Assembly: GCA_003522085.1 (NCBI GenBank)
Contig: DPGI01000005.1
Span: 172,868 to 236,867 of the forward strand
Source of the DNA: Clostridiales bacterium
GTDB taxonomy: Bacteria > Bacillota > Clostridia > Christensenellales > UBA1242
Reading direction: 5' to 3'
DNA: 64,000 bases
Shown: positions 10,343-30,081 of the stretch, one piece after another
How the letters are laid out: every line of letters starts with the position of its first letter
Position numbering within the stretch: the stretch's first letter is position 1
Position numbers and translations under genes: made by a program
Notes under the pieces: model-generated
What the model saw: only the letters and a program-made list of their open reading frames with translations
Told to the model about the DNA's origin: nothing
The model's database searches: none

Positions 10343-11575
10343 TTAAACTATACAAATTGGCACATTTTTTGATGATAAATCGCGCTGTGAAATTAACAAA
10401 TTTTTGGCATTTTTTGATAACTTTGTGCCTAAATGTTCAATCGCTTTTTCGTCGCAATTTTTTATTACTAAAACTTCTTTATAAATGCTGCCGTTAAAGA
10501 TTTTAAGAGAATTTATGTTGTCATATTCGTTTAACACAAAACCGCTGTTTGCCTTTAAAATAAAGCGTTTTCTTAGGTTGAGATATTCCTTTTCACTTTT
10601 AATGTCGTTTTTTCCTTTAAGCCATGCCATATAGATTTTTTCAGGCAAAATATAATTGATTTTGTTGTTAATATCTTTAAATTTTGTGTCAATTTTTACA
10701 TCAAAAATTTCACAAGTTTTTCTCTTGCTTTGAGCAAAATATGCTTCAATTTCTTCCATAGAATTTAGCATAAATTTTTCACTTCCAAAATTATAAAAAT
10801 AATGCTGTTTTTGATATGGTTTTAATCGCAAATTACAACTTATATTAACTTTTGGATAGGCGCAATTTTCAACGCCATCAACACAAGAAAAACAGAATTT
10901 ATTGGCTTTTGATGAGAAGTTGAAAAACATTCTTTCGCCCGAAAATAAGTGCGTTATTTTTATTGCGTGAAGCAGTTTTTCAAAGGTATAATATCCCTTT
11001 TCAAGTGGCAAATTTATTTCAAAATTCACCGATTTTTCGCTGTTTGTTGTGTTTAAAAATTCAAGATATATTCCTCTTCCCGACAACACGCATTCGCGCA
11101 CAAAACAGTTGATTCCGTTGTCTTCTAAAAAGCCATCATAAAAATAATTGCAAAGAGTTTGTTTTGCTTTTTTGCCGTTAAACATGATATAATTTTCACT
11201 AGCAACTGGATTATAATTTGAGGACGAGCGATAGTTTACGTTTAATTTTTTCAGATTTTCATCGTCAGAAATAATGAAATTTAGTTTTCTGCTGTGTGGT
11301 TGAGAGTGGGTGAAAACAAGGTTAAAATCGAGTTTTTTCTGCGCATTATAAAAGCATTTTGCCATGACAGGCGAAAGTCTGTTTTCATAAAAAAACACCG
11401 GTTTTGTAAGGTCTATTCCTTGGTTGATTAGCGTTTCAAAATTCACGTTTTCGGCATTTTTTGGCGCTTGAAATTTGACGCGACTGCATATTAAATTTGT
11501 CATATTGAAAATGTAATCTTTCTTTTTCATATCTTCATTTTTGACAATATTAAATTTACTAAACAAAAAAAACAA
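10343..11575 (-). CDS. hypothetical protein (Asn/Lys/Phe-rich, no recognisable domain)
   Basis: 410-aa ORF. An alternative start is the ATG at 11530. Confidence 0.5.
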   Translation of the reverse strand: MFFLFSKFNIVKNEDMKKKDYIFNMTNLICSRVKFQAPKNAENVNFETLINQGIDLTKPVFFYENRLSPVMAKCFYNAQKKLDFNLVFTHSQPHSRKLNFIISDDENLKKLNVNYRSSSNYNPVASENYIMFNGKKAKQTLCNYFYDGFLEDNGINCFVRECVLSGRGIYLEFLNTTNSEKSVNFEINLPLEKGYYTFEKLLHAIKITHLFSGERMFFNFSSKANKFCFSCVDGVENCAYPKVNISCNLRLKPYQKQHYFYNFGSEKFMLNSMEEIEAYFAQSKRKTCEIFDVKIDTKFKDINNKINYILPEKIYMAWLKGKNDIKSEKEYLNLRKRFILKANSGFVLNEYDNINSLKIFNGSIYKEVLVIKNCDEKAIEHLGTKLSKNAKNLLISQRDLSSKNVPICIV

Positions 11576-11596
11576 ACAACCGAAATTGTTTGCTTT

Positions 11597-11939
11597 TTGT
11601 CAGCTAAACTATAAGCCGAGTTCTGTATTTTGTGGTCATCTATCTAGACCTTTTGTCGCCAAAAGGTTCAAGCGGCGCTTTTGAAAGACACGTAAGACGC
11701 GATAACTGTCTTTGCTTGGCCTTGCATCGGGTGGGGTTTACAGAGCAAGCCATGTTACCACAGCCCCGGTGAGCTCTTACCTCGCCTTTCCATCCTTACC
11801 CTTGCGGGCGGTTTATTTCTGTTGCACTATCCTTAAAGTCACCTTCACCAGCCGTTAACTGGCACCCTGTCTTATGATGCTCGGACTTTCCTCACTTTGC
11901 TTTTTATCAGCAAACTGCGACCACATGTTTAACTGACTT
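11597..11939 (-). ncRNA. rnpB: RNase P RNA, bacterial type A
   Basis: Minus strand carries GAGGAAAGTCCGAGC, AGGGTGCCAGTTAACGGCTGG, GGTAAGAGCTCACC, GTAAACCCCACCCG and ACAGAACTCGGCTTA. P1 pairs GTCAGTTAAAC with GTTTAGCTGAC. Confidence 0.92.
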
Positions 11940-11973: not shown

Positions 11974-13329
11974 TTAACTTACTGTAAAGAGAACTTTTGA
12001 CGAGTTTTTCTTGTCAGTTGAAAAGCCTTGAATGACTCCGTCTTGTGAAATTTTAAGTGAAACGCCATACTTTGCAAGGTCTTTTGCTGCGGCAAGACGA
12101 CCACCGCCAAGCGAGCCTGCTTCGATTTTTAAAATTGCGCCAGCTGCGATGATTGTTCCGTCAAAATCAATGATGGTTGCTCCGTCCATGGCGATGATTT
12201 CTTCTCTGAGTTTGCGGTCAATTTCGTGGAACTTTCTGCCGTCGATAATTTGTTTAAGACATTCTGATTTATAGCATGAATTTTTAACCATAAATTCTTC
12301 ATAATCAGGCAAATAGAAACTGCGTGTGCGCTCAGCTGATGACAGATTGTAAAGTTTTTCGCTTTCTTCAAGTTCTATGCGCTTTTTAATTTCATAATAT
12401 CGTTCTGATAGAATGTCGCGAGCGTCAATGTGTGCGAGCGCTCCTTCCGCCATGTCACGTTTGAGATAGACTATTATTCCGCCCGAATAGTTGAACGAAC
12501 AATCAATCGCGGAAAGATAGATTGCACGGCGAATTTCTTTAAGCGAATGCGATGTGCGATATGAAAGAAGCTGAATAATCTCTTCGTGAGAATAAACGTT
12601 CCACTTCCCGCGACGCTTTGCATACATGAGCGTGTGATTTTTAAAAATCAAAAGATCGCCATTTTCTGTAAGAGCTATGCCAACCTTTTTTTCTCCGCAA
12701 TAACGGGCTACGTAGTTGAATTCATATGGCGCGATTGACGAATAGTTACGCACTTTTGCAAGAGAAACATATCCGGTTAAATAGCCGTCTTTGTTAAATT
12801 CGACAAAACTGTGCTTACCGTCAGAAAGAAGAGCGAAAAAGTCGCTTGAAAGCATGTCGGAATAATGCAAAGGTCCAACTTCGTTGTTGTCAGTAATATT
12901 TAAAATGATTCCAAAATTGATTTTTTTCCCTTCGTATGTGCGGGCACTCCAATTACTAAGCGCGCCAACAAGCCCGAGCATAGTTGAAGAAGCAGACGAT
13001 GCAACACTATCGCAGACTGCTTTTTCGATGGCTTTTTCGAGAAGCCCCATTTCATACGATGGGTCAAGTCCTTCAAAATTGCTAACATCATTTATTTCTT
13101 TTAAAATGTTTTTTAATAGGTTTATTTCAAATGGCTGATATGCTCGACCACGTTTAATCACAAGTCTGTATTCAGCTGTTTTGCAAGGTTTTATCAATAG
13201 CGAATTTTGTTTTCCAAGAGCAACTTCTGCTTCACGAGCGTTTGACTCCTCTTCCCCAACCAGTTGCGAACCGGTCAACAGCGGAAGGATCAATTTTCTA
13301 ACAACGAAGTAAAATTTCTCTTTTTCCAA
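11974..13329 (-). CDS. DisA_N (diadenylate cyclase)-like domain protein, RHR motif absent
   Basis: TTG start. The C-terminus DGATIIDFDGTIIAAGAIL...GGGRLAAA aligns to DAC motifs DGAxII and GTRHRAA. About 270 aa at the N-terminus are unknown. Confidence 0.6.
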   Translation of the reverse strand: MEKEKFYFVVRKLILPLLTGSQLVGEEESNAREAEVALGKQNSLLIKPCKTAEYRLVIKRGRAYQPFEINLLKNILKEINDVSNFEGLDPSYEMGLLEKAIEKAVCDSVASSASSTMLGLVGALSNWSARTYEGKKINFGIILNITDNNEVGPLHYSDMLSSDFFALLSDGKHSFVEFNKDGYLTGYVSLAKVRNYSSIAPYEFNYVARYCGEKKVGIALTENGDLLIFKNHTLMYAKRRGKWNVYSHEEIIQLLSYRTSHSLKEIRRAIYLSAIDCSFNYSGGIIVYLKRDMAEGALAHIDARDILSERYYEIKKRIELEESEKLYNLSSAERTRSFYLPDYEEFMVKNSCYKSECLKQIIDGRKFHEIDRKLREEIIAMDGATIIDFDGTIIAAGAILKIEAGSLGGGRLAAAKDLAKYGVSLKISQDGVIQGFSTDKKNSSKVLFTVS

Positions 13330-13488: not shown

Positions 13489-14202
13489 TTAATTTTTGTC
13501 GTAATAATTATGAGATAGGTCGTCTTTTATAAGTGATAACGCTTTTGCTTCAATTCTCGAAACATAACTGCGGGAAATGCCAAGTTTTTCAGCCAACTCT
13601 TTTTGTGTAAAAACATCTTCGCCATTAAGGCCATAACGCTTATTTAATATTTCTCTTTCACGCGGAGAAAGACGTTTGAGTGCCGTCTCGTTGATTTTTT
13701 CCATTAAAAAACTTGAAGAAACTGCATCTTCAACTTCGTCTTCGTCACTCTCTAAAATATCCATTAAAAGCACGTCGTTGCCGTCTTTGTCACATGCGAA
13801 TTTGCTGTTTAGAGATAAGCAATCTTTGTGTTTTTTGTTCATTCTAATCAGCATTAAAATTTCGTTGTCAATACATTTTGACGCATATGTGGCAAGTGCT
13901 GCCCCCTTTTCATATTTAAAACTGTCAATCGCTTTGATAAGCCCTATTGCACCAACAGAAATTAAATCGTCCGCTTCTATCGAAACCGTGCCAGCATATT
14001 TTTTCACGATATGCGAAACAAGTCTTAAATTGTGATTTATCAGTTCGCGGCGAGCCTGCATGTCTCCTTTTTCATGATAAGCCACCAAAAGTTCTCGCTC
14101 TTTTTCTTTTGATAATGGTTTTGGAAAACCTTCTGAGTTGTTAAGAAATGCAGTAAAACACCTTAACTTACTCAAAAATATCGGCAAACTTTCAAACAAC
14201 AT
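13489..14202 (-). CDS. sigK: RNA polymerase sporulation sigma factor SigK (pro-form)
   Basis: The pro-sequence then GFPKPLSKEKE and HNLRLVSHIVKKY resemble B. subtilis SigK. GAGGTG RBS. The gene is uninterrupted. The track ORF extension to 14295 runs into the repeat and was rejected. Confidence 0.85.
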   Translation of the reverse strand: MLFESLPIFLSKLRCFTAFLNNSEGFPKPLSKEKERELLVAYHEKGDMQARRELINHNLRLVSHIVKKYAGTVSIEADDLISVGAIGLIKAIDSFKYEKGAALATYASKCIDNEILMLIRMNKKHKDCLSLNSKFACDKDGNDVLLMDILESDEDEVEDAVSSSFLMEKINETALKRLSPREREILNKRYGLNGEDVFTQKELAEKLGISRSYVSRIEAKALSLIKDDLSHNYYDKN

Positions 14203-14221
14203 GCACCTCGCTTTGAAGTAA

Positions 14222-14250
14222 TGTATATGTCGTATTTTGTGGAAATTTGC
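14222..14250 (-). promoter_or_regulatory. sigma-E type promoter candidate for sigK
   Basis: GCAAATT-14 nt-CATATACA compared with the consensus ZHATAXX-14-CATACAHT (6/7 and 6/8 matches). Confidence 0.35.
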
Positions 14251-14259
14251 ATGTCCAAT

Positions 14260-14484
14260 ATCGTGGGGACAACCAAATTTTGAACGCGGACACACCCGCT
14301 AAACGCGGCCAACCGCTAAAATTCGGTTTTCCACCACGTGCCCCTTTCCCGCAACTTGACGCGCCCCGGGCGCTTTCGGCGTTGCATCAGGGCGCGCTAA
14401 ACTGTTTTCGCCGAGCAAAGCTCTTCCCCGAAAAAGTTTATCATCGCTTATCTTTATGGATAAATAAGATAGACAAGATGTCTA
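14260..14484 (+). repeat. GC-rich modular repeat, unit A1 (starts with 20-mer ATCGTGGGGACAACCAAATT)
   Basis: Near-identical to 26255..26480 and 26481..26705. Confidence 0.95.
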
Positions 14485-14504
14485 ATCGTGGGGACAACCA
14501 AATT
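14485..14504 (+). repeat. terminal copy of the 20-mer
   Basis: Exact ATCGTGGGGACAACCAAATT. Confidence 0.95.
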
Positions 14505-14507
14505 AAG

Positions 14508-14689
14508 GTCACCTGCGGTGACATGATGGCTGACTACGTCGGCATGATAGCACTCAAAGTGTGCATGATGGTCGCTAACGCGACATGATGGCGCACTGCG
14601 TGCGCATGATAGTCACTTATGTGACATGATAGTTGACTACGTCAACATGATGGTGTTCTTCGCACACATGATGGCACGCTGGCGCGTGC
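14508..14689 (+). repeat. array of 9 short hairpins separated by ATGATR linkers (period ~21 nt)
   Basis: Each unit is a G...C-closed 5-6 bp stem with a 3-4 nt loop. Stems differ by compensatory changes. T:G wobbles occur only on the + strand. Confidence 0.9.
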
Positions 14690-14692
14690 ATA

Positions 14693-14763
14693 GCGGTTGG
14701 ATTTAAAAAGCAGTTTGATTTTAAAAACGTAGTTGAATTTTAAAAAGCGATTAGATTGTAAAG
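14693..14763 (+). repeat. four ~18-nt A/T-rich direct repeats (GCRGTTKGATTTTAAAAA)
   Basis: GCGGTTGGATTTAAAAA, GCAGTTTGATTTTAAAAA, GTAGTTGAATTTTAAAAA, GCGATTAGATTGTAAAG. Confidence 0.7.
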
Positions 14764-14827
14764 TATGCAACATTAAATAAAAAAGCGGCGGGCAAAGGCT
14801 CGTCGCTTAGGTCATTAAATTTATTTT

Positions 14828-15724
14828 CTAAAACATTTCGTCTATAAAATTTTTTGCATCGAATTTTTCGATATCATCAATTCCCTCGCCTGTTCCTATA
14901 AACACAACTGGTTTTTGAAGTTCTTTTTCAATAGCAAAAACTACTCCGCCTTTCGCTGTTCCGTCAAGTTTGGTGAGCACAATTCCGTCGATTGGCACAA
15001 ACTCGTTGAATGCAGTGATTTGCGAAAGTGCATTTTGTCCTGTTGTTGCATCTAACACTATGAGCGACAATTTTTGCGCTTCCGGATACTCGCGGTCGAT
15101 GACTTTGTTTATTTTTTTAAGTTCTTCCATCAGATTTGTTTTTGTGTGCAATCTTCCCGCAGTGTCGACAATAAGCACATCCGTGTTTTTCGCTTTTGCA
15201 GATGCAATTCCGTCAAACACAACGGCGGCAGCGTCAGCACCTTCCGCGTGTTTAATTATGCGTGTTTTGCTGCGATCCGCCCAAAGCGAAAGTTGCTCGC
15301 TGGCGGCGGCTCTGAAAGTATCGCCGGCAACCAAAGTTACTGACTTTTTTTCATTTGAAAAGAACTTTGCAAGTTTGCCGATTGTTGTGGTTTTACCCAC
15401 ACCATTTACGCCAATTACTGTGATTACAAGCGGATAAGTAAATTCGATTTTTGGCGCACTGTCAAGACTTTCGGCAAGTATACTTTTAAGCGCTTTTTTA
15501 ACTTCATCCGCTGTGCGAATCTTGTTTTTGCGAGCGTAAACGCGAAGATCGTCGACGATTTCCATTGCTGTGCGAACGCCCATGTCGCAAGAAATCAAAA
15601 TATCAGTTAAATCATCATAAAAATCATCGTCAAGTTCGCCATGACTGAGCAAAGAATCAAGTTTGCGCGCAAATGCTTCACGCGTTTTTCTGAGTGCTGC
15701 GGCAATTTTTTTAAAAAATCCCAT
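14828..15724 (-). CDS. ftsY: signal recognition particle receptor FtsY
   Basis: SRP GTPase motifs GVNGVGKTTT, DTAGR, TKLDG. Confidence 0.95.
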   Translation of the reverse strand: MGFFKKIAAALRKTREAFARKLDSLLSHGELDDDFYDDLTDILISCDMGVRTAMEIVDDLRVYARKNKIRTADEVKKALKSILAESLDSAPKIEFTYPLVITVIGVNGVGKTTTIGKLAKFFSNEKKSVTLVAGDTFRAAASEQLSLWADRSKTRIIKHAEGADAAAVVFDGIASAKAKNTDVLIVDTAGRLHTKTNLMEELKKINKVIDREYPEAQKLSLIVLDATTGQNALSQITAFNEFVPIDGIVLTKLDGTAKGGVVFAIEKELQKPVVFIGTGEGIDDIEKFDAKNFIDEMF

Positions 15725-23840: not shown

Positions 23841-24764
23841 TTGAAAAAATTTAACTTTTTTATCACTATTTTGTTGATTGTTTTGGTTGTTTTGATTGCT
23901 TTAAATAGCAAAGTCTTTATCTCTGCTGCACTAAACGGAATTTCTGCTTGGGCTTTCAACGTTTTGCCATGCATCTTTCCTTTTATGATTATAACAAAAA
24001 TCATAATATCGATGGGACAAGTTGAAAAGTTTTGCAAGCCATTTTCGCGACCTTTTTTAAAACTTTATGGGACAAGCGGCAGCAGCGCATATGTATTTTT
24101 TATGAGCATTTTGGCGGGCTATCCGGTTGGGTCGCAAATGGTTGCTTCGCTTTATGAAAGCGGAAAAATTGACAGGACTCAGGCTTACAGAATGTCGAGT
24201 TTTTGTTCAAATTCGGGGCCAATGTTTATAATTGGAACAGTGGGCTGCTTGCTGCTGAAAAACGCGGCGGCTGGCGGAATTTTGTTTGCATCGCATGTGC
24301 TTAGTGCTCTTTTAAATGGGCTTGTTTACAGAAAAATTCGGGCACGTGGAAACACGCAGAATGCAGAAGAAAATGTGCAGGTTTTGCCCGCTTCGCAATC
24401 GTTTGGCGACATGGTTGGCACGTCAGTTCAAGCGATTTTGAACGTTGGCGGAATCATTTGCTTTTTCTTTATAATAATCGAAGCACTCTCTCCTTTTTTG
24501 GGACTTTTGCCCGGCGTAGTTAGGCCGCTTGCGGAAGGACTTATTGAACTTACGCGCGGCTGCATTGACGCAAGCAGTTTGCCAACTTTTGCGGCGAGCG
24601 TGATGTGCAGTTTTATGATTGGATTTGGCGGATTTTCGACGATATTGCAATCGATGACGATGTTAAAAAAACTGAGAATGCCGGTGTGGCTGTTCTCAGT
24701 TATGAAATTTAGTCAAGGACTAATTTCGGCAGGAATTACTGCTGTTTTAATGCTTGCTATTTAG
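23841..24764 (+). CDS. nucleoside-recognition-domain membrane protein, YlbJ-like (sporulation integral membrane protein)
   Basis: TTG start after GAGG. Polytopic. Contains motif ILAGYPVGSQMVASLY. Confidence 0.5.
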   Translation: MKKFNFFITILLIVLVVLIALNSKVFISAALNGISAWAFNVLPCIFPFMIITKIIISMGQVEKFCKPFSRPFLKLYGTSGSSAYVFFMSILAGYPVGSQMVASLYESGKIDRTQAYRMSSFCSNSGPMFIIGTVGCLLLKNAAAGGILFASHVLSALLNGLVYRKIRARGNTQNAEENVQVLPASQSFGDMVGTSVQAILNVGGIICFFFIIIEALSPFLGLLPGVVRPLAEGLIELTRGCIDASSLPTFAASVMCSFMIGFGGFSTILQSMTMLKKLRMPVWLFSVMKFSQGLISAGITAVLMLAI

Positions 24765-25578
24765 TTTCGTGTTTAATTTGTGCTTGAACGATGCTTTCAA
24801 GTTCTCTCATCAAATATTTGAGTGAGCGAATGCCTTTTGTTGCATATTTAAGCCCGCAAACAAGGCCATTTACAAGGTCAAAATCTTGTTCAAGACAAGC
24901 GATAATTACGCAGTGAAGCATAAGATTTACATCGTCAGTTTGGGCTGTTTCTTTTTCTTCGCAAAGGCGCTCGATCATTTCAATCGCTGCGTCTTTTGCT
25001 GCGATAAATGTAAGGCAAGCGCCAGTTGGGTCTTTTAAATAATAAGACGATCTTTCGATTGGGAAAGGAACAATTTTTAAACGCTCTTCTGGTGGAAGGG
25101 CTTCGATTTGTTCTTCTGTCATTGGCTCGGCTTCTTCTTCAACTGTTTCTGATTCAGGCTCTTGAAGTCCAAACGCATCGATAAGCAAGTTTTTGAATGG
25201 AAGGATTACACTTTCCATAAACTTTTGAGAATCTAAACGGTTGTTTTCATCGGCGAAATATGAAGTGATAAGTTCGTCATATTTAATCTTGCCACTTCCT
25301 ATATCGGCAAGAAGGCAAAATACGAGCGCCAAAACTTTGTATTCTTCTTTTGGCATAACAAAAATTTTCTTCCCTGTTGAATCTTTTGTAAAAGCGCGGT
25401 CAAATTCTTTGGCTTTGTTGAATGAATTCATGCATTCTGAAAGAAGTTCGTATACTTCTGGACATTCGGCGATTGCTTCTAAAATTTTGTTGATTTTTTG
25501 GTCTGCAAACAACATTTTTGTTGTTGTAAGATCGTCACATAATGAAATTAAGTTTTTGATTTGATTTTCGTTTTCCAT
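24757..25578 (-). CDS. hypothetical protein
   Basis: 273 aa with AGAGGAATAG RBS. No domain recognised. Confidence 0.6.
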   Translation of the reverse strand: MENENQIKNLISLCDDLTTTKMLFADQKINKILEAIAECPEVYELLSECMNSFNKAKEFDRAFTKDSTGKKIFVMPKEEYKVLALVFCLLADIGSGKIKYDELITSYFADENNRLDSQKFMESVILPFKNLLIDAFGLQEPESETVEEEAEPMTEEQIEALPPEERLKIVPFPIERSSYYLKDPTGACLTFIAAKDAAIEMIERLCEEKETAQTDDVNLMLHCVIIACLEQDFDLVNGLVCGLKYATKGIRSLKYLMRELESIVQAQIKHETK

Positions 25579-25667: not shown

Positions 25668-26228
25668 ATGGACAATATCATTTCAGACGAAATCAACAAC
25701 GAAGAAAAGGTGCGACTTAAACTTACACTGTTATTTTTCATGGAAAAAATGGAAATTCCACTCACCAAAAACTCTATTCTCGACATCTGCTCGCTTGAAA
25801 ATGATTGGATTAGTTACATAGACTGCGTCGCTATCATTTCAGAACTTTGCGACAGCGGCTTTATCTATAAAACCGAAAACGCTGAAAATGACGAACTTTA
25901 TTCTATCACCTATTCCGGTCGCGAATGTTTAGCTCAACTTTACACCCGCGTGCCATATGAACGCCGCGAAAAAATGACCGAATATGTAAAGCAAAACAAA
26001 CTTTCAGTTAAGGCATCGCAAGAATACACTTCAAACTATGTAAAAAACGACGACGGCTCTTATACTGTTACTCTCAGAATTTATGAGCCAATGATTCCAA
26101 CCCCTATGTTTGAAATAAAAATTAAAGCACCTTCAAGACAAAGCGCAATCGAGGCTGACAAAAAATGGAAGCGCAATGCTCCAAGTGTTTATGAATATGT
26201 TTATGAAAATTTGGTTAATACCGACTAA
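25668..26228 (+). CDS. DUF4364-like (PadR-like winged helix) protein
   Basis: 186 aa. The N-terminal LKLTLLFFMEKMEIPLTKNSILDI pattern resembles DUF4364. The stop codon overlaps the first 20-mer repeat. Confidence 0.5.
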   Translation: MDNIISDEINNEEKVRLKLTLLFFMEKMEIPLTKNSILDICSLENDWISYIDCVAIISELCDSGFIYKTENAENDELYSITYSGRECLAQLYTRVPYERREKMTEYVKQNKLSVKASQEYTSNYVKNDDGSYTVTLRIYEPMIPTPMFEIKIKAPSRQSAIEADKKWKRNAPSVYEYVYENLVNTD

Positions 26229-26247
26229 TCGTGGGGACAACCAAATT
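26228..26247 (+). repeat. solo copy of the 20-mer
   Basis: Exact ATCGTGGGGACAACCAAATT. Begins on the last base of the preceding stop codon. Confidence 0.95.
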
Positions 26248-26254
26248 TTTTTAT

Positions 26255-26480
26255 ATCGTGGGGACAACCAAATTTTTTTACGCGGACACACCCGCTAGGC
26301 GCGGGCAACCGCTAAAATTCGGTTTTCCACCACGGACCCCTTTCCCGCAACTTGACGCGCCCCGGGCGCTTTCGGCGTTGCATCAGGGCGCGCTAAACTG
26401 TTTTCGCCGAGCAAAGCTCTTCCCCGAAAAAGTTTAACATCGCTTATCTTTATGGATAAATAAGATAGACAAGAAGACTT
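26255..26480 (+). repeat. GC-rich modular repeat, unit B1
   Basis: 226 nt. Starts with the 20-mer. Confidence 0.95.
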
Positions 26481-26705
26481 ATCGTGGGGACAACCAAATT
26501 TTTTTACGCGGACACACCCGCTAGCCGCGGGCAACCGCTAAAATTCGGTTTTCCACCACGGGCCCCTTTCCCGCAACTTGACGCGCCCCGGGCGCTTTCG
26601 GCGTTGCATCAGGGCGCGCTAAACTGTTTTCGCCGGACAAAGCCCTTCCCCGAAAAAGTTTAACATCGCACTTCTTATTGATAAATTAGATAGACAAGAA
26701 GACTT
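26481..26705 (+). repeat. GC-rich modular repeat, unit B2 (tandem)
   Basis: 225 nt. Differs from B1 by a few substitutions in the GC-rich core and a more diverged AT-rich 3' tail. Confidence 0.95.
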
Positions 26706-26725
26706 ATCGTGGGGACAACCAAATT
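26706..26725 (+). repeat. terminal copy of the 20-mer
   Basis: Exact copy, followed by AAG and the hairpin array, as at 14485. Confidence 0.95.
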
Positions 26726-26728
26726 AAG

Positions 26729-26827
26729 GTCACCTGCGGTGACATGATAGCACGCTGACGCGTGCATGATAGTCGCTGCGCAACATGATGGTTGACTGCG
26801 TCGACATGATGGTGCAACAAGTTGCGC
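26729..26827 (+). repeat. array of 5 short hairpins separated by ATGATR linkers
   Basis: GTCACC-TGC-GGTGAC, GCACGC-TGAC-GCGTGC, GTCGC-TGC-GCAAC, GTTGAC-TGC-GTCGAC, GTGCAA-CAAG-TTGCGC. Confidence 0.9.
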
Positions 26828-26866: not shown

Positions 26867-26889
26867 AGATTGAAATTCAATCTTTTTTA
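26867..26889 (+). terminator. rho-independent terminator closing the DUF4364-repeat transcript
   Basis: AGATTGAA-A-TTCAATCT followed by TTTTTT. An A-run precedes it, so it could act in both directions. Confidence 0.7.
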
Positions 26890-27056
26890 TTTAATTTTTA
26901 TTTAATTTTGTATTTTATTTTTAATTTTTTATTATTTAATTATTTATTTTTATTTTATTTTAATTATTTTTCGATTTATTTCGCAATTTATTTTATTATT
27001 TAATTAAAAACCCTTTTACTGCCTTTATTTTTCGGATATTTAATTAAACAATAAAT

Positions 27057-27994: not shown

Positions 27995-29110
27995 TTATAA
28001 GATGGTTAAGTCTTCTTTTGTGAGAGTTGTGTCTTTCAAGTATTCATCGTCAAGTTTATAGAATGTGTGCGATGCGTTTTCGAAAAGTTCAAACATGCGT
28101 TTTATGTTTTTATCGTTAAGTTTGTTTGCGTCAAACTGAATAAATCCTTTTTCGTCGCGGATGTATTCGCCTTTGTCGCCATGCATTATATAATCGTCTG
28201 TGCACCAGCCATCTTTGCCTTTCCAGAACAATTTTTCAACCAAATCTTGATAGGTTTTTGCGATTTTATTGTAGTTTGGATGTTTTTGCTTATTAAGCTT
28301 TATCATAATTAAATCATGTCTTTCAACATAAGTTTCGCAAAGTGTAAATATGCGGGAAATTTCGCTGATTTGTTCATCTTTTGAAAGACCTTTCCAATAA
28401 TCCTTGAATGTTTTTTCTTTTTCAGGCGCAGTAGGACGAACAGTCTCGCGTGGCTTCATCATCTCTTCTCTTGCCTTTCTTGCTGCTTCTTTGCGAGCGG
28501 ATTTTTCGGCGGCGATTGCTTCGCGCTTCGCTTGCTCTTCGGCCTGTGTCGCTTTGTGCATATGATATTGGAAATTTGGGCAAATTAGGCTCATTTCCAT
28601 TTGGATTTTAACTGGCAAATCATGTTGGACATAGCCATTTGTGAGTTTTTCCATAAGATATAAATCCACTTCGTTTTTGCGTTTGCAAATCTCTTCGGCT
28701 TCAATCAAAACAGCAAGCAGTTTTTTCATTTTTGCTGTGTCCCAAGAGTTTTGGTCGCGAAGTTCATTCAGCACGACATCGATGCTTTTTGCAAGGTCGC
28801 AATTTCTCTTTTTAGAATCTTGGAAATCCTTGTTAAAGCAGAATTTATGATTTGTTGATTCAATGTTGTATGCTTGGCTGACAGCGGTGAAAAGTTTGCC
28901 AAGTATTGTCAGATCTTCATAGATAACTTTGCGATATTTAAAAGCATTTGATTTATAGCGATTGTAAACCTCTTTATCATCTTCGGTCATTGCATTGATT
29001 TCTTCGTCAGTAATAATATCGTCTTCGATTTTTACGTCACCTTCTACTAATACTGGCACCAAATCTTCCTTTTTGCTGTTTTTGTCAAATTCGGGTCGAA
29101 CTATTGCCAT
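27995..29110 (-). CDS. hypothetical protein with central Ala/Glu/Lys-rich helix
   Basis: Start moved to MAIVRPEF (AAAGGAGAAAAA RBS). This removes the overlap with degV. Confidence 0.6.
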   Translation of the reverse strand: MAIVRPEFDKNSKKEDLVPVLVEGDVKIEDDIITDEEINAMTEDDKEVYNRYKSNAFKYRKVIYEDLTILGKLFTAVSQAYNIESTNHKFCFNKDFQDSKKRNCDLAKSIDVVLNELRDQNSWDTAKMKKLLAVLIEAEEICKRKNEVDLYLMEKLTNGYVQHDLPVKIQMEMSLICPNFQYHMHKATQAEEQAKREAIAAEKSARKEAARKAREEMMKPRETVRPTAPEKEKTFKDYWKGLSKDEQISEISRIFTLCETYVERHDLIMIKLNKQKHPNYNKIAKTYQDLVEKLFWKGKDGWCTDDYIMHGDKGEYIRDEKGFIQFDANKLNDKNIKRMFELFENASHTFYKLDDEYLKDTTLTKEDLTIL

Positions 29111-29226
29111 TTTTTCTCCTTTGTGATTTTGTTTATGCTGATTAACAAAACAAATAAACTTGATTATTATAAAATAAATAAGAGGCAAAGTCAATATGCC
29201 TCTTAAAAGTTTGTTGTGAATATTTT

Positions 29227-30081
29227 TTAATTTACATCGTTTATATACAAAATTCCAAGCGTGTTTTTGCCGCAATGTGATGTGATTACACTGCCTGCCA
29301 AGTTTTCTTCGACGTGCTCGAATATGTTTTTTGATTTAACATATTCGACCACCATATCAACCAATTCTTGGCTCATGGCTGTGTGAGTGACAAAGCAAAA
29401 ATCTTTGCGTGGAGATGGATGCTTTTTCAAGATGCTGTCAACATATTTGATGAGCACGGATTTGAGTGGTCCGATTTCTTTGCCAGTGTTTATAAGGCTG
29501 CCGTCGACGACTTCAAGACGTGGCTTAATTTTTAATAGACCTGCGACCGAGAATGTAAAACGTGAACATCTGCCACCCTTGTAAAGATATTCAAGTTTGT
29601 CTAATGTGAATGATGTTTGAGTGTTTTGTGCTGATTTAGTCATTTCGCTGACAACTTCGTCAAGACTCTTTCCTGCCCTTGCTGCCACAGCACCGCTGAG
29701 TACTGTAAGACCTGTGCCAGATGAAAGTGCGCATGAATCGACAATTTTGACTTTGTCGCCAAGCCCAAGTTCTTCAACTGCACGGCAAGCGTTTGAATAA
29801 CATACTGAAAGTTTTGAACCAATTCCGCAATGGACAATTGCGTCGCAAGATGTGAGAAGTGACGAGAAATATTCTTTAAAATCTTCGATGCTGCGAGCCG
29901 AAGTTTTTGGCAAAATTTTTGACTCATCTACAAATTTATAAATATCGTCTGGTGAAATGTTTACGCCATCAAAATATTCATTGTCGCCAAGTGTTACAAT
30001 AAGCGGAAAAACAGATATGCCAAATTCATCGACAAGGTGTTTTGGAAGGTCTGCTGTTGAATCGGTTGAAATTTTTATCAT
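29227..30081 (-). CDS. DegV family fatty-acid-binding protein
   Basis: MIKISTDSTADLP N-terminus. 284 aa. Confidence 0.88.
   Translation of the reverse strand: MIKISTDSTADLPKHLVDEFGISVFPLIVTLGDNEYFDGVNISPDDIYKFVDESKILPKTSARSIEDFKEYFSSLLTSCDAIVHCGIGSKLSVCYSNACRAVEELGLGDKVKIVDSCALSSGTGLTVLSGAVAARAGKSLDEVVSEMTKSAQNTQTSFTLDKLEYLYKGGRCSRFTFSVAGLLKIKPRLEVVDGSLINTGKEIGPLKSVLIKYVDSILKKHPSPRKDFCFVTHTAMSQELVDMVVEYVKSKNIFEHVEENLAGSVITSHCGKNTLGILYINDVN

Follow-up and report, generated by a model that had tools for sequence, protein, structure and literature searches.

A modular intergenic repeat beside sigK and between DUF4364 and rnhA in an uncultured Clostridia lineage: a candidate mosaic, minisatellite-like element

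Layout of the two loci

The window studied here, i.e., the whole stretch of 64,000 nucleotides (64 kb) that was analysed, comes from a Clostridiales bacterium (GenBank assembly GCA_003522085.1, contig DPGI01000005.1, positions 172,868 to 236,867 of the forward strand). Two of its intergenic spacers, one between ftsY and sigK (locus 1) and the other between the gene of a DUF4364 protein and rnhA (locus 2), carry copies of the same repeat. Across the strains described below, its architecture consists of a 20-mer (ATCGTGGGGACAACCAAATT), zero to two copies of a 205-nt module each closed by another 20-mer, a series of 5 to 13 or more hairpins bounded by a G...C pair and joined by ATGATR linkers, and a tail. 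The exact 20-mer occurs six times in the 64 kb (at 14260, 14485, 26228, 26255, 26481 and 26706), always on the plus strand, and shuffled controls gave no match to it, even with up to three mismatches.

At locus 1, the ATG of sigK is the reverse complement of positions 14200-14202 and, as read from the sequence, the element begins 58 nt away from it. The putative sigK promoter lies in this interval on the minus strand (14220-14250, with the -10 TATACATT at 14220-14227 and the -35 GCAAATT at 14244-14250); presumably it is of the sigma-E type, an assignment we base on the consensus of B. subtilis. It adjoins the repeat and is placed outside the repeat proper, the element starting 10 bp upstream of the -35. 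The earlier note on this DNA had already proposed such a promoter, and its footprint (GCAAA-N18-CGACATATAYAT) is indeed conserved in the window, in the sister lineage L001 and in L151, L152, L156 and L157. On the plus strand, positions 14260-14504 comprise the first 20-mer (14260-14279, the 5' strand of the predicted helix P1), the 205-nt GC-rich unit and the second, exact 20-mer (14485-14504), after which come AAG, nine palindromes, an A-tract tail and the ftsY terminator. The unit is itself divided into a GC-rich structured portion (14280-14440, predicted to form P1, P3 and P4) and an AT-rich 3' portion (14441-14484), which exists as two haplotypes and contains weak promoter-like hexamers. 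The nine modules of the hairpin array (14508-14689, plus strand) have the form G-stem-loop-stem-C, measure 14-16 nt each and are joined by ATGATG or ATGATA; they are located at 14508-14522, 14529-14543, 14550-14564, 14571-14584, 14591-14605, 14612-14625, 14632-14646, 14653-14667 and 14674-14689. Between the array and the terminator stands the A-tract tail (14692-14762, plus strand), made of about four copies of an 18-19-nt repeat (AGCRGTTKGATTTTAAAA) and shorter in L126, L130 and L001. The intrinsic terminator of ftsY (14785-14806, minus strand; stem GCGACGAGCC...GCCCGCCGC, then TTTTTTATTT) forms the outer edge of locus 1. On the other side, two genes downstream of sigK and on the same strand, we found a bacterial RNase P RNA of class A (11596-11936, minus strand, 284 bits).

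Locus 2 (26228-26827) has the same orientation as locus 1 and contains two units and five hairpins. It starts with two 20-mers separated by 7 nt (26228-26247 and 26255-26274, plus strand), which constitute a 27-nt duplication, and the first 20-mer shares its first base with the end of the DUF4364 stop codon. Two tandem units follow (26275-26725, plus strand), each closed by a 20-mer (26481-26500 and 26706-26725), and then the array of five modules (26729-26827, plus strand: 26729-26743, 26750-26765, 26772-26784, 26791-26805 and 26812-26827) and a bidirectional terminator hairpin common to DUF4364 and rnhA (26868-26884). Terminators are found 40-100 nt past both hairpin arrays. An AT-rich tract of low complexity (26883-27006, periods of 5-12 and 40-42) separates this shared terminator from rnhA and is specific to the lineage. 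The coordinates of the element beside sigK (14260-14504), the plus orientation it shares with the 26-kb locus, the 58-nt distance to sigK and the numbers of units (one versus two) and hairpins (nine versus five) had all been reported in the earlier note and all hold.

Aligned without gaps, positions 14275-14504 are 95% and 80% identical to the tandem copies at 26271-26726, and a gapped alignment of the unit copies gives a mean column identity of 96%. Tandem Repeats Finder (TRF) detected the units of locus 2 with a period of 226, 2.1 copies and 95% matches, and also gave periods of 19-21. The motif CATGATRG, which includes the linker, has 13 occurrences in the 64-kb window, where 2.3 were expected; all but one of them lie inside the two arrays. 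Both loci have the same 20-mer and then an identical first hairpin, and each has a sequence of its own directly 3' of the 20-mer (TTTTGAAC at locus 1 versus TTTTTTTAC at locus 2). The 12 kb between them encodes FtsY, SMC, RNase III, PlsX, L32, acetate kinase and phosphotransacetylase, as confirmed by Pfam. The earlier note had argued from these essential genes that the loci are not the ends of one mobile island, and the conservation of the intervening genes and of their order in sister species devoid of the element agrees with it. Four other ORFs in the surroundings, all on the minus strand (10343-11575, 11974-13329, 24757-25578 and 27995-29275), are conserved and have no Pfam match above threshold, with a sub-threshold match to CSTF_C only for 24757-25578; they are not linked to the repeat, since their orthologues are present in sister species that do not have it.

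Variation between strains and phylogenetic range

Other assemblies that encode a SigK or a DUF4364 protein identical to that of the window were fetched and their spacers were parsed. Within the species, the length of the spacer is 283-663 bp for ftsY-sigK and 530-829 bp for DUF4364-rnhA, among strains that differ at 1.4-9% of the 4-fold sites of ftsY plus sigK. At locus 1, one unit is present in the window and in L125, L126, L131 and L132, no unit in L128, L129, L130 and L133 (in which a single 20-mer leads directly into the hairpins), and in L127 the unit is mostly deleted at a microhomology junction; the number of hairpins among these alleles is 5, 9 or 11. At locus 2, two units are present in the window and L139, one in L135, L137 and L138 and none in L134, L136, L140 and L141, three of these last four keeping a 27-nt remnant. 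Here the hairpins number 5, 9, 13 or at least 10, and blocks duplicated as a whole and linked by GCGCAAGAGA point to higher-order duplications. Pairing the loci by contig name, we found one strain (ERZ28575116 scaffold_14, L128 plus L136) with no unit at either locus and another (GCA_019971425.1, L129 plus L137) whose only unit is at locus 2. Even the closest strains differ in their unit state: L125, with one unit, and L130, with none, differ at 1.4% of 4-fold sites. The idea of a modular, expandable element, first put forward in the earlier note, is strongly supported: strains with identical SigK or DUF4364 have between zero and two units, and their hairpins number from 5 to 13 or more. The two loci thereby show what characterizes a VNTR or minisatellite, namely head-to-tail repeats with a copy number that varies between strains at the same locus.

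The first 20-mer is kept in every allele of locus 1, including the unit-free ones, and the latter retain exactly one 20-mer, as expected from recombination between one 20-mer and the next. That deletion does happen is shown by the unit remnants in L127 and in the alleles of the L134 type. Several assemblies break inside the element and, because tandem copies may collapse in short-read assembly, the higher copy counts have to be read as lower bounds. The unit-free junctions, on the other hand, are not artefacts of the 20-nt repeat, given an assembly k of 119-141, as suggested by the k-prefixed names of the contigs.

The phylogenetic range of the element is narrow. When the genomes of the GTDB representatives were scanned for the 20-mer, only L001 matched, with one exact copy. 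In sigK and ftsY, this sister lineage shares about 95% identity with the window, the divergence at 4-fold sites being 19%; its orthologous locus contains a single unit, five hairpins and a second 20-mer that has diverged. The corresponding record (CAVCJG010000004.1) is titled Eggerthellaceae bacterium (Actinomycetota) and is about 95% identical to our low-GC, sigK-encoding window; judging by this identity, the metagenome-assembled genome is probably mislabelled or mis-binned. A scan of metagenomes with a 20-mer of the unit core gave two contigs of the same species, both ending inside the unit, and one chance match in a GC-rich ispD-like gene. Further away, relatives with 90% identity in FtsY have no more than one hairpin-like palindrome and, adjoining the sigK promoter, a degenerate 20-mer, which is found at the same site in L151 and L164. 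In species with 85-86% identity in FtsY, the ftsY-sigK spacer of 68-70 bp corresponds to the conserved promoter, with no element. These short spacers (L152-L158) contain no terminator, so that sigK is exposed there to read-through from smc-ftsY; in the lineage of the window, ftsY is followed by a strong terminator. At the other site, species with 79-88% identity in DUF4364 have only a bidirectional terminator of 10-32 bp between DUF4364 and rnhA. The named homologues of DUF4364 come from metagenome-assembled genomes of Christensenellales and Clostridia. Since both the array and the unit are missing at both sites in sister species, these two parts are young and confined to the lineage of the window.

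Predicted structure and competing explanations

We consider, with a probability of about one half, that the elements at locus 1 and locus 2 are two copies of a hypervariable modular intergenic repeat, mosaic or minisatellite-like, that is non-coding, restricted to this lineage and not required for sigK. Whole units would be removed or duplicated when 20-mers recombine or slip on one another, and hairpin modules in the same way between the 21-nt repeats, with microhomology deletions probably contributing as well. By its look, the 20-mer of locus 1 may be native sequence upstream of sigK, and the copy at locus 2 would be a secondary acquisition; it follows the stop codon of DUF4364 directly, at a site occupied by a simple terminator in sister species. 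What would maintain the element is the formation of hairpins and helices in a single-stranded nucleic acid, in the simplest form an RNA made by co-transcription. At locus 2 this RNA would belong to the 3'-UTR of DUF4364; at locus 1 it would be part of a read-through or orphan transcript. As the gene order is arranged, the array of locus 2 must be co-transcribed with DUF4364 unless termination occurs earlier. At most, such an RNA might serve as a stabiliser of mRNA ends or as an insulator.

The fold of the unit was evaluated through a three-domain model on an alignment of nine distinct unit sequences. In this model, P1 pairs 14261-14281 with 14318-14339, that is, the 20-mer with its internal complement, and carries two tip hairpins of the form GCGG-loop-CCGC; P3 (14348-14392) is an irregular hairpin including the smaller hairpin 14361-14373, and P4 (14398-14440) is a hairpin including 14413-14423. 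For the 56 pairs of the model, 99.2% of the cells are paired over the nine sequences. Two compensatory double changes were observed (14363/14371, from G-C to A-U, and 14414/14422, from A-U to G-C), and the other variable columns are mostly in loops and junctions. A central helix proposed by RNAalifold (102-108/132-138) was rejected as it is broken by the G105A variants, which become a compensatory pair in the alternative local hairpin 103-107/111-115. Compared with shuffles, the z-score of the fold is -3.67 for the plus strand and -2.53 for the minus strand, the unit folding on either strand. The two compensatory pairs, together with the accumulation of variation in loops and junctions, point to a structural constraint on the modelled unit, at the level of RNA or of single-stranded DNA, although two events are thin evidence. 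The tip hairpins of P1 (14283-14320) are a 17-nt tandem duplication, and the theme of a hairpin plus a linker therefore recurs within the unit. The substitutions, either paired or biased towards loops, are not codon-like, the starts and stops of ORFs vary between copies, and the ORFs at 14247-14588, 26231-26437 and 26295-26534 have no Pfam match; a protein-coding unit was discarded on these grounds.

In the arrays, every module is palindromic although the stems vary widely (about ten stem sequences): conservation is limited to the closing G...C pair and the ATGATR linker, and the polymorphism, judged by eye, is densest in the loops. Read on the plus strand, the mismatches in the hairpins are 12 G.U versus five A.C, which leans towards this strand but is not decisive, and assigning the strand through wobble pairs was abandoned. 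The pairing of the hairpins may also be of mutational origin, produced by quasi-palindrome correction through template switching, with no selection on structure.

Over the 182 structured nucleotides, the window and L001 differ by 3.8%, versus 18.9% at 4-fold sites; a core of 73 nt is identical in both (P = 2e-7), and the AT-rich part is 15.9% diverged, close to the neutral rate. On this comparison of sequences, the unit looks too conserved for junk, which argues for a function or for a recent exchange between lineages. The diversity of the unit within the species (4.8%) is similar to the 3.8% between lineages and the AT-rich haplotypes are common to different loci and lineages, so that exchange between copies could account for the conservation just as well as selection. 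Purifying selection as the sole cause of the invariant core is weakened by the same equality.

Several of these features would also be expected from a family of non-coding RNA genes, an explanation that we consider possible but rather unlikely. In that case the unit would correspond to a small structured RNA (about 180 nt), the AT-rich end of each unit would provide a promoter for what lies downstream, and the array would be a multivalent RNA, acting either as a decoy or sponge for a protein or as a substrate processed into small hairpin RNAs. Such genes would account for a GC-rich island in a genome of 39% GC, for a multi-helix fold with two covarying pairs and variation otherwise concentrated in loops, for the core shared by lineages that differ at 19% of 4-fold sites, for conserved linkers joining variable stems and for the terminators that follow both arrays. 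They could also use the sigma-70-like site located at 26660-26687 (plus strand, TTAACA-16-TAAATT with an upstream TG). However, this site belongs to the second unit of locus 2, the only one of the three units that reaches the sigma-70 threshold; the scan of locus 1 gave no site at threshold, the AT-rich shuffles of the locus 2 region yield 4.9 +/- 2.2 sites, and the unit-free alleles of locus 1 have no evident plus-strand promoter for the array. The divergent transcript suggested in the earlier note is therefore possible but weak. Besides, the unit is dispensable, as the strain represented by L128 plus L136 lives without it at both loci, exchange may account for its conservation, it has no relative in Rfam and no gene for a partner protein is linked to either locus. 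More specifically, and in our opinion with little likelihood, the modelled unit could represent a new class of structured RNA in which the 20-mer is a processing or switching junction, the AUGAUR-linked hairpins are a multivalent platform that binds or titrates a protein, and the copy number works as a dial at the population level. The role of junction is suggested by the ability of the 20-mer to pair with the same internal complement from either an upstream or a downstream position.

It also seems improbable that the 225-bp unit is a non-autonomous mobile cassette, with a recombinase encoded elsewhere, the 20-mer as att core and the unit-free alleles as empty sites. The precise presence or absence of the unit, with exactly one 20-mer left, the tandem double occupancy, the sharing by both loci of the 20-mer and of the first hairpin, and the near-identity of units whose AT-rich haplotypes are found across loci and lineages are all compatible with it, and a repeat of 20 bp is short for efficient RecA-dependent recombination. 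But no integrase or transposase gene is present within 6 kb on either side of each locus, the unit does not have terminal inverted repeats, and the imprecise deletions (L127 and the L134-type remnants) are those of ordinary illegitimate recombination. Finally, the signature that each locus has of its own after the 20-mer argues for vertical descent at each site.

The last explanation, a very improbable one, makes of the unit a cis-regulatory element that tunes sigK through activator or decoy sites, DNA geometry or a divergent or read-in transcript, in line with the possible influence on sigK expression raised in the earlier note. It would be consistent with the 10 bp that separate the element from the -35, with the 20-mer-like sequence found at the same position in relatives without the rest of the element, owing to which the 20-mer may be a native upstream site, and with the GGACAA of the 20-mer, which we take to be the core of the SpoIIID site of B. 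subtilis; however, the full SpoIIID consensus (WWRRACARNY) is absent from both loci and not enriched in the window (75 matches versus 76.6 expected), and the 20-mer was rejected as a SpoIIID box. Nature has in addition provided the relevant alleles: with the same promoter, 20-mer and SigK, four of the nine same-species assemblies have no unit at locus 1, a fifth has it mostly deleted and one strain is unit-free at both loci. Sister species run sigK from the same promoter in their 68-70-bp spacer without the element, so that the first half of the refutation named in the earlier note, close relatives with that promoter and no element, is observed. The other copy lies between DUF4364 and rnhA, two convergent genes unrelated to sigK. 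For these three reasons a role in sigK is not supported and, as far as comparisons between genomes can tell, the repeat is not a required component of sigK regulation.

If the reading as a modular intergenic repeat is true, these loci offer a clean, low-copy mosaic repeat from an uncultured gut lineage of Clostridia, probably within Christensenellales, with an unusual two-tier build that combines a conserved structured module of 205 nt and palindromes keeping structure and not sequence, and with population data that capture directly the gain and the loss of modules. It would explain why assemblies break at both sites, the two loci could become strain-typing markers for the species in metagenomes, and the element would be a cautionary case showing that proximity to sigK is no ground for a regulatory meaning. 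If the unit were instead a structured RNA, it would be a new class of non-coding RNA for which natural knock-out alleles are already at hand. The strains represented by L128 plus L136 and by L129 plus L137 are such natural knock-outs and can be used for comparison.

Comparison with known families of elements

Searched with Rfam at gathering scores, the whole window contains the RNase P RNA and one tRNA only; with E values up to 10, the region 14150-14850 gave just three noise matches of the snoRNA type (14-17 bits). Riboswitches, ribozymes, known sRNAs, the IS605/HEARO RNAs and the domains of group II introns were set aside, as no covariance model of these Rfam families matched. Distant-mode blastn against plasmid and phage collections gave no match to the element, and neither the unit core nor the first hairpin with its linker is present in viral contigs. 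Three viral matches to a 16-mer of the 20-mer are due to chance and lie in unrelated sequence. The pattern of three CATGATRG was found in more than 120 viral contigs, in coding acidic repeats (of the DDMMEE type), and is uninformative without a palindrome constraint. With a spacing of 19-25 nt it is common in the viral contigs L002-L121, in coding repeats rich in Asp, Glu and Met that are unrelated to the element. In the literature, we found no described equivalent in Christensenellales or Clostridia.

Several classes of elements were considered and rejected. A CRISPR array has at least three near-identical repeats of 23-47 nt that alternate with unique spacers of similar length, usually beside cas genes; here, what stands between the 20-mers is the same 205-nt unit, the part kept in the hairpin array is only 6-8 nt long with variable parts that are self-complementary, and no cas-like Pfam family was found within 6 kb on either side of each locus. 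A MITE or another non-autonomous insertion sequence is contradicted by the ends of the unit (TTTTGAACGCGG... and ...GACAAGATGTCTA), which are not inverted repeats, by the complement of the 20-mer, located about 40 nt inside the unit, and by a 20-bp repeat that far exceeds usual target-site duplications. Type III toxin-antitoxin systems of the ToxI type have identical tandem repeats of 34-45 nt directly before the gene of an endoribonuclease toxin, versus non-identical modules of 20-22 nt here, and what follows the element downstream is a terminator and then the 3' end of a gene of the opposite strand, ftsY or rnhA.

With REP elements and BIMEs, the repeat shares clusters of short imperfect palindromes in intergenic regions, a short conserved single-stranded "head" beside the stem and a frequent location at the 3' ends of genes, where a stabilisation of mRNA is possible. 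But REP stems are conserved within a family, present in hundreds of copies and mobilised by RAYT transposases, and the REPs of BIMEs often alternate in orientation; our modules all point the same way, differ in their stems and, in the 64 kb covered, are low in copy number. Because a REP family requires a conserved palindrome, the unconserved stem sequence (about ten stems) led us to reject this class; no RAYT gene was found in the gene tables within 6 kb on either side of each locus. MIRU/VNTR loci are likewise tandem intergenic repeats with a strain-variable copy number, and they too may begin at the stop codon of the preceding gene or overlap with it; unlike our element, they are made of sequence-conserved repeats of 40-100 bp and do not have the two tiers of a GC-rich unit and palindromic 21-mers.

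The STAR repeat consists of a conserved motif of about 14 nt with spacers of 40-60 nt. So described, STAR differs from our element in that it lacks a structured 205-nt module and strings of variable-stem palindromes, and it is unrelated in sequence. Like our element, STAR consists of direct repeats that are rich in GC and lie between the genes of a low-GC Firmicute (Purves et al. 2012, PMC3532100), at loci that expand or contract between strains and that keep, each of them, lineage-specific sequences (PMC3532100), the function of STAR being unresolved; STAR expansions within a 3'-UTR have also been reported (bioRxiv 10.1101/2023.05.16.541063).

In NIMEs (Bentley et al. 2007, PMC1797815), RS elements 50-150 bp long are flanked by dRS3 repeats of 20 bp. 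As in our element, a 20-bp repeat brackets longer units and syntenic arrays vary in number and length between strains, with recombination at this short repeat proposed as the cause. However, dRS3 is an inverted repeat (ATTCCCN8GGGAAT, PMC1797815) to which our 20-mer, non-palindromic and of another sequence, does not fit, and a NIME was rejected on that basis. NIMEs also comprise more than 100 RS families in hundreds of copies, versus one unit family at two loci here, and the hairpin-linker arrays are absent from them.

BOX elements, of the structure boxA-boxB(n)-boxC, were judged to be parasitic rather than specialised for the host (Croucher et al. 2011, PMC3049150). They too are modular and non-coding, with a variable number of internal modules and an extensive predicted secondary structure, and their distribution is limited to one species and the relative closest to it (PMC3049150); their co-transcription with neighbouring genes (PMC3049150) would be paralleled here by that predicted from the position of the element. 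Compared by description, BOX differs by its many dispersed copies and a conserved boxB sequence, against two loci seen here and small modules that keep only a 6-nt linker and palindromy, and it has no counterpart of the 205-nt GC-rich module. The low copy number seen, with two loci in the window, counts against a classic parasitic repeat family, unlike BOX or REP, which typically reach hundreds of copies. As far as these comparisons go, the element seems to belong to none of the BOX, NIME, STAR or REP-type repeats, yet in its behaviour it resembles them all.
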